This document shows, in pieces, positions 52 through 14,195 of a stretch of 14,195 bases of DNA. The position numbers and the translations under genes were made by a program. Source of the DNA: a virus; the UHGV virus genome UHGV-1730239. One strand, written 5' to 3'. Under the pieces are notes generated by a model, which was not told the origin of the DNA, did no database searches, and saw nothing but the letters and a program-made list of their open reading frames with translations. Position 1 is the first letter of the stretch, and each line of letters opens with the position of its first letter.

Positions 52-101
52 TTATAAATACTCCTGAATGCTCTGTGTTAGTTTTAATGTTTCATGCTAA
101 A

Positions 102-138
102 AGCCTCCTTGCGCCAACAGGGAGGCTTTTTTATTTTT
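102..138. terminator. Rho-independent terminator-like hairpin, usable in both directions
   Basis: Stem AGCCTCC (102-108) pairs with GGAGGCT (121-127), extendable to ~10 bp; followed on + by TTTTTTATTTTT and on - by TTTT. Sits ~40 nt downstream of the minus-strand gene 171-350. Confidence 0.6.
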
Positions 139-170: not shown

Positions 171-350
171 TTAACAAACTTGAACGTTAATCTTTATCTG
201 AATTTCGTATTTCTTCATTAGCTTATAGAATCCGCTTCTATCAATTCCTTCCTTCTTAAAGAAATTCTCGCCGCCTCGTTCAGTATCGCCATAAAAGCGT
301 TTAGCAATATCAACAATCATTTCACGAGTAAACTTAACAGGTCTAGCCAT
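171..350 (-). CDS. Small DNA-binding protein with resolvase-type (HTH_7-like) helix-turn-helix, 59 aa
   Basis: ATG at 350 with GAGGA 8 nt upstream; the listed 64-aa ORF begins at an upstream TTG. Protein MARPVKFTREMIVDIAKRFYGD...SGFYKLMKKYEI matches the GRPxxFT...IA...S..FYK..KK pattern of invertase/resolvase C-terminal HTH domains. Paralog of the gene at 3448-3675. Confidence 0.6.
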   Translation of the reverse strand: MARPVKFTREMIVDIAKRFYGDTERGGENFFKKEGIDRSGFYKLMKKYEIQIKINVQVC

Positions 351-449
351 AAGTAGATTCCTCAAATGTGGATTAATAAGGACAATAAAAAGAGCTTTTC
401 GCCCTCGATACTTCTATTTATAAAATGATTTTCAGAAAACCCTGTAAAA

Positions 450-573
450 CCACTGTATATCCGATCAGTGGGAGCACGAATTGCTAAAGAGAAGATTAAT
501 AATTAATCAATTCGTACATTATTCAATCGAAAAAGCACTGTATGTTTAACCAGTGCTGTATGTGTTAACAGTG
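450..573. promoter_or_regulatory. Three copies of an 18-bp operator-like element CTGTAT-N7-CAGTG; the third also fits a LexA-box pattern
   Basis: 453-470 CTGTATATCCGATCAGTG; 538-555 CTGTATGTTTAACCAGTG; 556-573 CTGTATGTGTTAACAGTG, with the last two directly tandem. Copies 1 and 2 are flanked to form CCACTG..CAGTGG and GCACTG..CAGTGC inverted repeats. 556-571 reads CTGT-N8-ACAG. Confidence 0.5.
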
Positions 574-692: not shown

Positions 693-737
693 AGTATAAA
701 ATAATCCTTGACAGTTGTCAATACACTTGACCTAAGC
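693..737. promoter_or_regulatory. Divergent promoter/operator: palindrome TTGACA-GT-TGTCAA with a leftward sigma70-like promoter and a rightward TTGACA-N13-TTGACCTAAG motif
   Basis: Palindrome at 708-721. Leftward: -35 TTGACA (721..716), 17-bp spacer, -10 TATACT (698..693), pointing at the operator triplet and gene 171-350. Rightward: bipartite motif 708-737, no convincing -10. Confidence 0.5.
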
Positions 738-3447: not shown

Positions 3448-3675
3448 TCAAAAACCTGTTGCTTCTACGATCTGACCGTCGCCAATCTGAACATAGAATT
3501 TAATATCTAACTTCTTGATATTTTTATAGAATTGAGCTACCGATATAGCGTGCTCACTAAGAATCTGTTCTTTCGCTTCCTTCCCGCGATCCGCTGTATA
3601 GTAAGCGTAGGCAATATCAGCCATTTGTTCTTGAGTGAAACGTGCCGGACGACCGCGAGTAGCTTTAATAGTCAT
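3448..3675 (-). CDS. Small DNA-binding protein with resolvase-type (HTH_7-like) helix-turn-helix, 75 aa
   Basis: ATG at 3675 with GGAGGA 7 nt upstream; the listed ORF starts further upstream without an SD. Protein MTIKATRGRPARFTQEQMADIAYAYY...ISVAQFYKNIKKLDI carries the GRPxxFT.EQ...IA...S..FYK motif. Paralog of gene 171-350. Confidence 0.65.
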   Translation of the reverse strand: MTIKATRGRPARFTQEQMADIAYAYYTADRGKEAKEQILSEHAISVAQFYKNIKKLDIKFYVQIGDGQIVEATGF

Positions 3676-3710: not shown

Positions 3711-4313
3711 TTATTTAGAGGACTTACATTTTATCGGAAAAAGTTCTCCATCGTCAACTGACATAAAAAACTCTGCCTTAATCCCGTACTTCTTCAACCG
3801 TGAATAATATGTACCCCGACTTATATCAACCTTGCGAAGCACTTCAAAGAAGGATTTAGGATCGTTGTAATAGTGGCTGTACTTCACGTTAGCGAGTTCT
3901 ACAAACAATTCCCTTGTATCACCATAGCCTTTCTTGAAAGCCACGTTACGATAGCGTGTAATAGCGTGATTTAGTCTCTTCTGTTTCAACACTTCCCTGA
4001 TCGGTGTCCACTGCAACCGATAGATCGGACCGTCATCCACTCGATAATAACGCTTGATATCAAAATCAAACCATTCACGGACTCTCTGGAACTCTGTATG
4101 TGATGTTCTATGCTTCTTAAAGAAGTTGTGAACGTCTGTATAACCATTATCACGGTAAAATTCTATTAAAATCTCTTTCGCTTCCTCACGGCTAAACCCA
4201 GATGTTGTGTAATCGGTCTTTAAGTGCTTATGTTTTACTGGCAAACGATATTCATGATCGGTACAAGACAAGGCTAATTCTAATTCATCTCTTTCTTGCT
4301 GATTAATTAGCAT
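3711..4313 (-). CDS. Hypothetical protein, 200 aa, with C-terminal HTH-like segment ([13 protein letters not shown]); first gene of the leftward operon
   Basis: ATG at 4313 with AAGGGGGG upstream; its stop sits 35 nt before the next start. The C-terminal motif resembles the recognition helices of the two small HTH proteins. Function not recognised. Confidence 0.6.
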
Positions 4314-12254: not shown

Positions 12255-14195
12255 ATGCAAAGTCTACAGCACAAACGATCCGGTGTTGCTGGTAAAAAAC
12301 CGACGCCGGAACAATTACAGGTCGGTGAATTAGCAATAAACTTAGTCGACCATGTAATTTACACTAAAGATAAAAGCAATGCGGTAGTGCAAATCAGTGT
12401 TTCCCCAGAAAGTCATAATACTTTAAACAAAAAAGTAGACACCAACAAGACGAACACCGATAAAGTTATTGTCGCAAATAAAAAAGAAGCTGCTAATAAT
12501 CTGGCTACCGCTAAAACTGAATTAACTAACACTATCAACACCAAAGACGCCGCAATCAATAAACGTGCTGATGGTATCAATACCGCTGTTTTGAATCTAC
12601 AGAAGATGGTAGCGGCAAATAAAACTGATGCAGATAACAAGATTACTTCTTTAACATCGACTGTCACCGCAAACAACACAGCGATCAATAAAAAAGTTGA
12701 TGCAAACAAGATGCAAGCCGACAAAGAGATCACCCGCTTAGATGGTCGTATCGATGATGCTGTTTTCCGTGGTGAATTGCCAACTGATGCAAATTTAGAT
12801 ACATATGGTCCACTTCCTGAATTTGTCGGTGTATGGGGCAAATCAACGTCTACTAACGCAACTCCGGCTTATAGTTTCCCGGAAGATGGCGCGGTTGGTA
12901 TTCTTGAAGTTTTCTCCGCTGGTAACTTTGCGGCAACTCAGCGTTATACGACGCGCTACGGTAATATTTTTGTTCGTAACCTTTCCGCTAAATGGAATGG
13001 CTCTAATGGTCCGTGGACGCCGTGGCGTAATATTCAGATGGGTACTCGTCCGCTTTCGACGTCAATTAATCTTAATGATTTTGGCGGTGTTGAGCATTTT
13101 GGCTTATGGCGAAACGGGTCTACATCAATTGCGTCGTTAGATCGAAACTTCCCAGAAGCAGGGGCAGACGGTCGAGGATTGTTAGAAGTTTTTGAAGGTG
13201 GTAGTTATTCCCGTATGCAGCGTTACACAACCATTAACGGTCGTGTGTATATTCGTACTCTCGCCGCTTCGTGGGATGCATCCGCGCCGAGATGGGAAGC
13301 GTGGAAAAAGGTTGGTCTTTTTACCCCGTCTGAAATTGGCACATACAATAAAGCGGAAATTGATAAGAAAATTTCTGATTTGGACAATGCGCTAGTATCT
13401 AAACCGATCCAGCCGTTACCGGACGTATGGATACCGTTTAATGATTCTCTGGATATGATCACAGGATTTGCGCCGGGATATAAAAAAATTACTGTTGGTG
13501 CGGATGTTGTCACTATGCCTAGTGACAAGATTGTTAGCTTTACTCGTGCATCAACCGCTACATATATTAATAAATCTGGTAGGCTTAGTGTCGCTGCAAT
13601 TGATGAACCACGATTTGAAAAAAATGGTTTATTGATTGAAGGCCAACGAACTAACTATTTTGTTAAATCTAACACCCCTGCCGAATGGACTAGCACAAGC
13701 AATATTGATAAAAGCAATAATGGCGTTGATGAATTTGGTTTTTCATTTGCAAAAATGAAAACTAAGGAAAATATGACGGGTCAATCATCCGCTCTTAGTT
13801 TGCATACATGCAGCGCATCCCGTGGTGTTGATGTTAGTGGTGATAATAAGTTTTGCACAGTTTCTTGTCGTGTTAAGGCTCCTGATGGCCTCCGTTGCCG
13901 TTTACGCTTTGAAAAATACGATGGATCGGTTTACACCTTTTTGGGTGATGCTTATTTGACTTTCGGTAGCACATTGACAATAGAAAAAACTGGTGGTGCT
14001 GCTAATCGTATTACGGCTAACGCTACTAAAGATCCGGTTACTGGTTGGATTTTTTACGAAGCGACGATAGAAGCGGTTGAAGGGGAAACCTTGATTGGTG
14101 CAATGATTCAGTATGCACCGAAAAAAGGCGGTGTAACCGAAGCAGGGGATTATATCTATCTTGCCACACCACAATTCGAAAATGGTAGTTGTGCG
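12255..14195 (+). CDS. Tail fibre protein, 3'-partial (at least 647 aa, continues past the window end)
   Basis: ATG at 12255 with GAGGTGA upstream; the frame is open to the last base and is absent from the ORF track only because no stop falls in the window. Contains an N/K/T/A-rich coiled-coil-like shaft (~12400-12760) and two ~48-aa repeats with motif LEVF...QRYTT..G..(F/Y)(V/I)R.L.A.W....W..W resembling the knob domain of pyocin/phage tail fibres. Confidence 0.75.
   Translation, partial: MQSLQHKRSGVAGKKPTPEQLQVGELAINLVDHVIYTKDKSNAVVQISVSPESHNTLNKKVDTNKTNTDKVIVANKKEAANNLATAKTELTNTINTKDAAINKRADGINTAVLNLQKMVAANKTDADNKITSLTSTVTANNTAINKKVDANKMQADKEITRLDGRIDDAVFRGELPTDANLDTYGPLPEFVGVWGKSTSTNATPAYSFPEDGAVGILEVFSAGNFAATQRYTTRYGNIFVRNLSAKWNGSNGPWTPWRNIQMGTRPLSTSINLNDFGGVEHFGLWRNGSTSIASLDRNFPEAGADGRGLLEVFEGGSYSRMQRYTTINGRVYIRTLAASWDASAPRWEAWKKVGLFTPSEIGTYNKAEIDKKISDLDNALVSKPIQPLPDVWIPFNDSLDMITGFAPGYKKITVGADVVTMPSDKIVSFTRASTATYINKSGRLSVAAIDEPRFEKNGLLIEGQRTNYFVKSNTPAEWTSTSNIDKSNNGVDEFGFSFAKMKTKENMTGQSSALSLHTCSASRGVDVSGDNKFCTVSCRVKAPDGLRCRLRFEKYDGSVYTFLGDAYLTFGSTLTIEKTGGAANRITANATKDPVTGWIFYEATIEAVEGETLIGAMIQYAPKKGGVTEAGDYIYLATPQFENGSCA

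Follow-up and report, generated by a model that had tools for sequence, protein, structure and literature searches.

The window, i.e., the whole 14,195-bp stretch of viral DNA analyzed here, belongs to a prophage lineage of E. coli. Its first 1.7 kb is 99.9% identical to a chromosomal prophage inserted in hicB of E. coli O6:H16 strain 2014EL-1346-6. This prophage is ∼36 kb long, splits hicB, and encodes a large serine recombinase (integrase), a lambda-type large terminase, a portal protein, a protease-capsid fusion, tail proteins, and a Rha-family protein. Related sequence is present in 58 of 5,426 complete E. coli genomes, while the leader described below, including its three boxes, is found in 31 of the 5,426, in one copy each and unannotated, and also in Salmonella. 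Neither the RefSeq annotation nor Pfam and PHROG scans of ∼20 prophage proteins contained a CI/Cro, XRE, or S24 protein and, thus, no alternative SOS sensor is evident; replication genes were likewise found neither in the RefSeq annotation nor in the Pfam and PHROG scans of prophage proteins. A megablast search of the window against 50,697 phage genomes matched only a 240-bp tail-fiber segment, and TerL is at most 44% identical to that of any listed phage; hence, there is no characterized relative from which function could be borrowed. The segment at 13425–13662, the only one with DNA similarity to cultured phages, is ∼80% identical to tail-fiber genes of T5-like Escherichia and Salmonella phages, which suggests exchange of a receptor-binding module. 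At the other end, bases 1–13 (GCTCTTCCGATCT) match no E. coli genome, all database matches begin at base 14, and we take these bases to be the tail of an untrimmed Illumina adapter. The next leftward gene, which encodes a 331-aa coiled-coil protein with its ATG at ∼51, is also cut by the contig end. A promoter-like TAAACA-18-TAGAAT at 15–44 on the + strand is followed by a strong + strand terminator at 99–130 and by no + strand gene, and 15–130 might give rise to a short antisense RNA against the beginning of the 331-aa gene.

The leader of interest precedes a leftward gene for a 59-aa protein (Table 1), which the initial annotation had described as an HTH protein. The protein matches no family in Pfam or PHROG, and a tblastn search against 50,697 phage records gave no match. 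An AlphaFold model has three helices (pLDDT 77). Foldseek comparison of this model with the PDB gave nothing below E = 2, the best-placed entries being small HTH DNA-binding domains at nonsignificant values, and a profile search of the PDB gave nothing meaningful. Thus, the three predicted helices agree with the description while a significant fold or family match is lacking, and an HTH protein is a plausible reading of the model. The 59-aa protein is paralogous to a 75-aa protein (3448–3675; E = 2e-9) and to the C terminus of a 200-aa protein (3711–4313; hhalign 90%). All three are encoded on the − strand and share an (A/G)RP-x-(K/R)FT...FYK..KK three-helix module that belongs to no Pfam or PHROG family; the genes for the 75-aa and 200-aa proteins lie upstream of the large terminase gene and in divergent orientation to it. 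Homologs of the 59-aa protein are found in E. coli, Salmonella, and Proteus, and the 37 loci with such a homolog in these genera make up our comparison set. A scan of genome contigs added two distant relatives only, both in unrelated MAGs and uninformative on the boxes.

Table 1. Features of the leftward leader and its surroundings (positions in the window)
Feature	Position	Strand	Description
Box A	554..573		TGCTGTATGTGTTAACAGTG; LexA-type SOS box closest to the promoter; ∼+113 relative to the predicted start of transcription; box-bearing relatives have it at −223 from the ATG
Box B	536..555		CACTGTATGTTTAACCAGTG; best LexA-type match; 2-bp overlap with box A (18-bp register)
Box C	451..470		CACTGTATATCCGATCAGTG; weakest of the LexA-type boxes; 85 bp away from box B; 120 bp ahead of the ATG; ∼+216; at −120 in relatives
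Inter-box segment	471..535	−	GGAGCACGAATTGCTAAAGAG invariant among box-bearing relatives; shorter core AGCACGAATTGCTAAAG also in box-less leaders
59-aa gene	171..350	−	Putative regulated target; GAGGAA ribosome-binding site; three predicted helices; N terminus MARPVKFTRE
Leftward sigma-70-type promoter	693..721	−	TTGACA-17-TATACT, 11/12 consensus; −35 hexamer within palindrome TTGAC-N4-GTCAA
TATAAATA element	415..422	−	Conserved in all leader classes aligned or inspected, 7–14 nt ahead of the hairpin
Terminator-like hairpin and T-run	390..406	−	Between the boxes and the ribosome-binding site
ATTAATCCAC element	368..377	−	Directly upstream of the ribosome-binding site; ATTAATCCA (first nine bases) invariant in eight aligned relatives
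Hairpin terminator, strong	99..130		After the 59-aa gene; better T-run on the + strand; conserved in relatives

The local anatomy given in the initial annotation, i.e., a promoter, a leader, a small three-helix gene, and a Rha gene nearby, holds, and the leftward promoter that it placed at ∼693–721 is real as a consensus match. In Salmonella relatives, the corresponding promoter matches the consensus at 12 of 12 positions, and 34 of the 37 loci, with Proteus among them, have TTGAC[AC]-N16-18-TA[TA]A[AC]T ahead of the gene. From this promoter (721→693) to the 59-aa gene, the predicted transcribed leader measures ∼336 nt. The 14-bp palindrome that includes the −35 hexamer (708–721) is kept in box-bearing relatives in which the promoter was found and is absent in box-less leaders; it is a candidate operator for a phage repressor. 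Further downstream, the GAGC...GCTC stem with its T-run is present in all aligned relatives, including those of Proteus. The element GTGGATTAA has a second copy at 166–174. A 21-nt element, AGAATTTTTCATTTATAAATA, to which the TATAAATA element is related, occurs in three copies at 40–60, 615–635 (inverted), and 1552–1572 and may be a phage-specific promoter or regulatory element.

Within this leader, CTGTAT-N7-CAGTG occurs three times on the + strand, at 453–470 (CTGTATATCCGATCAGTG), 538–555 (CTGTATGTTTAACCAGTG), and 556–573 (CTGTATGTGTTAACAGTG), as originally proposed and as confirmed by direct reading and a pattern search. The last two copies abut, with starts 18 bp apart, and the first lies 85 bp away. 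These are the only copies on either strand of the 14,195 bp, even if one mismatch is allowed; 0.11 are expected by chance, and none of 200 dinucleotide-preserving shuffles gave three. With two flanking bases added, the copies become the 20-mers that we refer to as boxes A to C, all of which contain CTG-N10-CAG. The initial annotation had singled out the third copy, box A, as a fit to a LexA box. Box A is indeed the only one of the three to fit the stricter CTGT-N8-ACAG exactly, a pattern that at one mismatch is not enriched across the whole window (7 found vs. 3.9 expected); however, it is not unique in resembling a LexA site, as all three copies have the CTG-N10-CAG core and the second copy, box B, scores best.

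Three sets of observations bear on the identity of the boxes. First, all three are 20-bp imperfect palindromes with the core CTG-N10-CAG of the enterobacterial LexA box (consensus TACTGTATATATATACAGTA) and have the CTGTAT half-site in addition. We scored them with a heterology-index (HI)-type score in the Berg-von Hippel form of Lewis et al., using a matrix built here from 18 E. coli SOS boxes (PMC3009722, Table 4) rather than the original Lewis et al. 1994 matrix. On this scale, the 18 genuine boxes, each left out of the matrix in turn, score 0.6–12.8, and all three boxes fall inside this range (box B, 6.7; box A, 8.6–9.1; box C, 11.5); in Salmonella relatives, box B scores 4.4–4.8. Second, such scores are rare by chance: Markov shuffles of the window give 0.04 positions per 14.2 kb at a score of ≤9.1 and 0.42 at ≤12. 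Among the 27 CTG-N10-CAG sites in 78.7 kb of prophage and flanking chromosome, which have a median score of 16.7, the boxes rank first, third, and fifth, and this ranking agrees with the bimodal behavior reported for E. coli K-12 (PMC12527982). Third, a LexA of this specificity is present in the host, the prophage being chromosomal in E. coli and its box-bearing relatives residing in Salmonella. The similarity to known sites is close: the SOS box of E. coli dinB is CACTGTATACTTTACCAGTG (PMC3009722, Table 4), and box B differs from it at three central positions, while the arms CACTGTAT...CCAGTG are common to both (PMC3009722). They differ in placement, the dinB box lying at most 100 nt upstream of its gene in the promoter search of PMC3009722, the usual short range, and box B within a transcribed leader.

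Other LexA-type matches were also seen. In the same prophage but beyond the window, CACTGTACATACAACCAGAA (L020, 33129–33148; score 7.8) lies inside a tail-tip gene, and a weak match at 13447–13466 of the window (score 12.2) lies in the tail-fiber region; both are probably due to chance. Unrelated IMG/VR viral contigs contain head-to-tail runs of LexA-type boxes, in 2 to 5–6 copies, mostly in an 18-bp register and with HI-type scores of 2.9–10. Such runs are located at L001 7135–7259, L006 2042–2133 (five near-identical copies of CTGTATGGATAACCAGTG), L003 3300–3337, and L002 6805–6859, and the adjoining genes have no known function.

The 37 loci of the comparison set allowed us to ask what the boxes are inherited with. 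Twenty of these loci, which belong to E. coli and Salmonella, have boxes at exactly −223, −205, and −120 from the ATG (−224, −206, and −121 in one Salmonella lineage), and the sites at −223 and −205 are the only ones that score 9.5 or better in ∼190 kb of related sequence. Whereas the distance from the promoter to the boxes varies among relatives (+35 and +48 in Salmonella, +113 in the window), the distance to the downstream elements is fixed. Of the 51 boxes in 17 distinct triples, 49 retain CTG and CAG, and the positions that carry more information in the E. coli LexA motif tend to vary less (Spearman −0.67 and −0.73; p ∼1e-3 and 2e-4, for sequences that are related by descent). Thus, the boxes vary where LexA tolerates variation. 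The inter-box DNA is conserved at least as well as the boxes and, therefore, conservation alone is not specific to the boxes. Some relatives have changes predicted to weaken binding, i.e., CTG to CCG in box A and CTGTAT to CTGTGT; CTG to CCG is the variant seen in L026, L027, and L048. Boxes are absent in the Proteus relatives and in a second class of E. coli and Salmonella leaders, in which TAACA repeats and duplicated CGCTTTAGCAA-N-GTGCT elements take their place; both box-less leader classes retain the promoter, TATAAATA, and the hairpin, and nearly all of these leaders have the ATTAATCCAC element.

The box cluster is real and nonrandom, and it is LexA-type by sequence and conservation. Chance similarity or decay from former sites is accordingly a very improbable account of it. 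The weakening substitutions and the loss of boxes from whole lineages are what decaying relics would look like; however, three sites lie within 123 bp where 0.04–0.4 are expected per 14 kb, and their positions are conserved between E. coli and Salmonella lineages even though the flanks have diverged or been replaced.

The boxes were originally proposed to be autoregulatory operators, and we weighed the broader possibility that they bind a phage protein, be it the 59-aa protein itself or its 75-aa or 200-aa paralog, with the likeness to LexA sites coincidental or a form of mimicry. Consistent with this possibility, the gene whose leader contains the boxes probably encodes a DNA-binding protein, two paralogs of which are encoded in the window; moreover, the spacing of the boxes is fixed, and they are outside the usual position of LexA sites. 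However, operator and protein are not inherited together. The same boxes are found ahead of the window-type protein and ahead of a variant ∼53% identical to it, with differences in the predicted third helix; conversely, an identical 60-aa protein is encoded behind three boxes in one locus (L041) and behind none in four others (L039, L040, L042, and L043). Because this identical protein occurs with and without them, the boxes form a module independent of the downstream protein. This check of co-variation covered the downstream protein. Moreover, the variation among relatives follows the LexA motif, and the occurrence of the same motif in arrays on unrelated phage contigs points to a shared host factor. 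A phage-specific protein is, therefore, unlikely to be what binds the boxes, and the proposed autoregulation is not supported. By contrast, the suggestion of SOS control gains from the scores, the hosts, and the motif-like conservation, and it extends from one copy to all three.

What has not stood is the idea that the boxes occupy the position expected of operators: none overlaps the promoter, and all fall within the transcribed leader, between +35 and +235. The usual place of a LexA box is over the transcription start or the −10/−35 region, 20–60 bp from the ATG (PMC8072944). The only strong promoter here is 113 nt upstream of box A, or 35–48 nt in Salmonella relatives, and none of the boxes overlaps or abuts a −35, a −10, or a start. 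This position in a transcribed leader is unusual for LexA. A consensus scanner run on the window and three relatives, together with reading by hand, identified no promoter on either strand that overlaps the boxes and is shared by the E. coli and Salmonella versions. Weak candidates at the boxes (TTGAAT-16-AATTAT leftward; TTAATA-16-CATTAT and TTGCTA-17-TAATCA rightward) were dropped, as was an antisense candidate, TTCAAA-18-TATATT, seen in L014 only. The + strand ORFs at 553–699 and 593–730 (45–48 aa) were ruled out as targets, this stretch being missing in Salmonella relatives.

That no clear promoter is overlapped could mean that LexA binds here for another purpose, such as control of an antisense or rightward transcript, an action on the iteron region as a possible origin or packaging site, or titration of LexA during phage replication. 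An iteron-rich 0.9-kb noncoding region does lie 350 bp away, and arrays of up to 5–6 boxes on other phage contigs look more like sinks than like simple operators. However, neither a rightward promoter nor an ORF is conserved with the boxes, the 45–48-aa ORFs within 553–730 being absent from the Salmonella relatives; the spacing that stays fixed is that between the boxes and the downstream gene, not that to the iterons; and three sites per genome make a small sink. We consider this alternative unlikely. The noncoding stretch itself separates divergent gene sets and contains ∼ten copies of the iteron (A)AACCTACACT at 916–1042; copies are also present upstream of and within promoters of box-less relatives, e.g., TTGACACTGTGTAGG. 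A role of the iterons as repressor, origin, or packaging sites is possible. A GC-rich inverted repeat, GGCGTAGCCGTGCGCGAAGCG / CGCTTCGCTCACGTTCACGCC, is embedded in AT-rich noncoding DNA at 1171–1266, which is a possible cos or origin region in a phage with a lambda-type terminase, and AAAGGGATTGG is repeated at 942, 1229, and 1372. The only gene resembling that of a small terminase (phrog_57, E = 1.6e-10; L010 17518–18072) lies to the left of the window near the hicB junction, ∼6.3 kb from the large terminase gene and with the LexA-box region in between.

As the boxes are palindromic and lie in a leader, they could also act as RNA hairpins, in a structured leader or in a small RNA ending at 406→390, with no protein bound to the DNA. 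The leader has a better fold than its shuffled versions (z = −3.55), the boxes add stems to the fold, and a terminator-like hairpin follows them. However, only three base pairs per box, those between CTG and CAG, are invariant; the outer stem positions 1–2 and 19–20 change without compensation, e.g., from CACTG...CAGTG to TACTG...CAGGT; the conserved TAT would fall in the loop; and an Rfam search of positions 1–2500 at a permissive E-value returned no family. With compensatory changes absent, we rejected this reading, to which we give hardly any weight.

Altogether, these comparisons support a model, to which we assign a probability of roughly 0.6, in which the three boxes are sites for host LexA that place the leftward unit under SOS control. 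That LexA binds at least box B in vitro appears more likely than SOS-dependent control itself. The following account of how LexA would occupy the sites, in which direction and by which mode it would repress, and what the 59-aa protein does is inferred. In an undamaged lysogen, LexA dimers would occupy the abutting pair at 536–573 and the single site at 451–470 and would thereby hold the leftward unit at a low level of expression. Repression could occur in two modes. In the first, LexA at several sites would form a roadblock that halts RNA polymerase elongating from the upstream promoter; strong promoters tend to push through roadblocks, which counts against this mode. For LexA, pausing of RNA polymerase has been described in vitro (PMC4132739). 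In the second, LexA would occlude a weak or activator-dependent proximal promoter, of which TATAAATA at 422→415 is possibly the −10, and box C would then span approximately −41 to −60. Reading the sequence of the box-bearing class by eye revealed no acceptable −35 for this element. In either mode, DNA damage would lead to RecA-stimulated self-cleavage of LexA, the block would be released, and the small protein would be made. The functional outcome would be that the regulatory state of the prophage is tied to the SOS response. Because the gene is separated from the boxes by a terminator-like hairpin, the leader RNA rather than the 59-aa protein could be the regulated product.

Direct control of prophage regulators by LexA is established for Gifsy phages, 186, and N15 (PMC3121763). 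The LexA-controlled induction genes in these systems are gfoA, gftA, and gfhA of Gifsy-1/2/3, which lie behind a dinI homolog, tum of coliphage 186, and antC of N15 (PMC3121763). The locus described here resembles them in that boxes for host LexA precede a small gene that is outside any recognizable immunity region, and the logic would likewise lead from damage through LexA cleavage to a small effector (PMC3121763). No self-cleaving CI-type repressor is seen in the RefSeq annotation or in the ∼20 prophage proteins scanned. It differs from them in three respects. The 59-aa protein, which resembles a three-helix DNA-binding domain, matches no family of antirepressors and neither Tum nor DinI; the boxes here number three rather than one, and they lie far downstream of the promoter without overlapping it; and in Gifsy a terminator precedes the LexA box, whereas here the terminator-like hairpin comes after the boxes (PMC3121763). 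On the basis of sequence and conservation, we class the sites as SOS boxes; the locus is not classed as a Tum/Gfo-type antirepressor module, as the 59-aa protein does not belong to the Tum, Gfo/Gft, or AntC families and the boxes differ in number and placement.

Two further systems are informative. In colicin operons, double boxes sit just past the −10 of the promoter. These SOS boxes overlap and provide tight repression of a strong promoter (PMC2994835). As in colicin operons, two LexA sites are adjacent here and two dimers would be expected (PMC2994835), and by analogy the abutting pair may give similarly tight repression (PMC2994835). The arrangement is nevertheless not of the colicin type, in that the overlap between the 20-mers is limited to 2 bp, their first base lies 35–113 nt downstream of the predicted start, and a third box follows 85 bp on. 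In the Bacillus thuringiensis phage GIL01, LexA itself is the lysogeny repressor, with boxes in promoter P1 that need a phage cofactor, gp7, to enhance LexA binding (PMC4551915). The present prophage may be similar to GIL01 as a temperate phage that lacks a classical CI and has host LexA sites in a regulatory region, and it differs in host and box consensus and in that no gp7-like gene was identified here.

A more far-reaching version of our model is that host LexA is a principal lock on lysogeny, that three LexA dimers form an elongation roadblock in the leader of a promoter of consensus strength rather than occluding the promoter, that leaders with and without boxes are natural SOS-dependent and SOS-independent alleles of one prophage, and that the 18-bp arrays of 2–6 boxes on unrelated phage contigs represent the same device scaled up. 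The box cluster would in this version be a swappable SOS sensor cassette because an identical downstream protein is found behind box-bearing and box-less leaders. Taken as a whole, we regard this version as rather unlikely.

If LexA binds the boxes, this prophage lineage would be wired directly to the SOS response through a small protein of a DNA-binding type rather than through a known antirepressor. Leaders with and without boxes precede one and the same protein, and they could serve as a natural test of how much the LexA cassette alone contributes to SOS-dependent induction, a property that the tool PSOSP attempts to predict from sequence (PMC12527982). Boxes this deep in a transcribed leader would also be a natural test case for repression by a LexA roadblock. 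Our findings extend a known theme and leave current concepts unchanged; what they add is the location of the boxes in the leader and their modular presence or absence among relatives.
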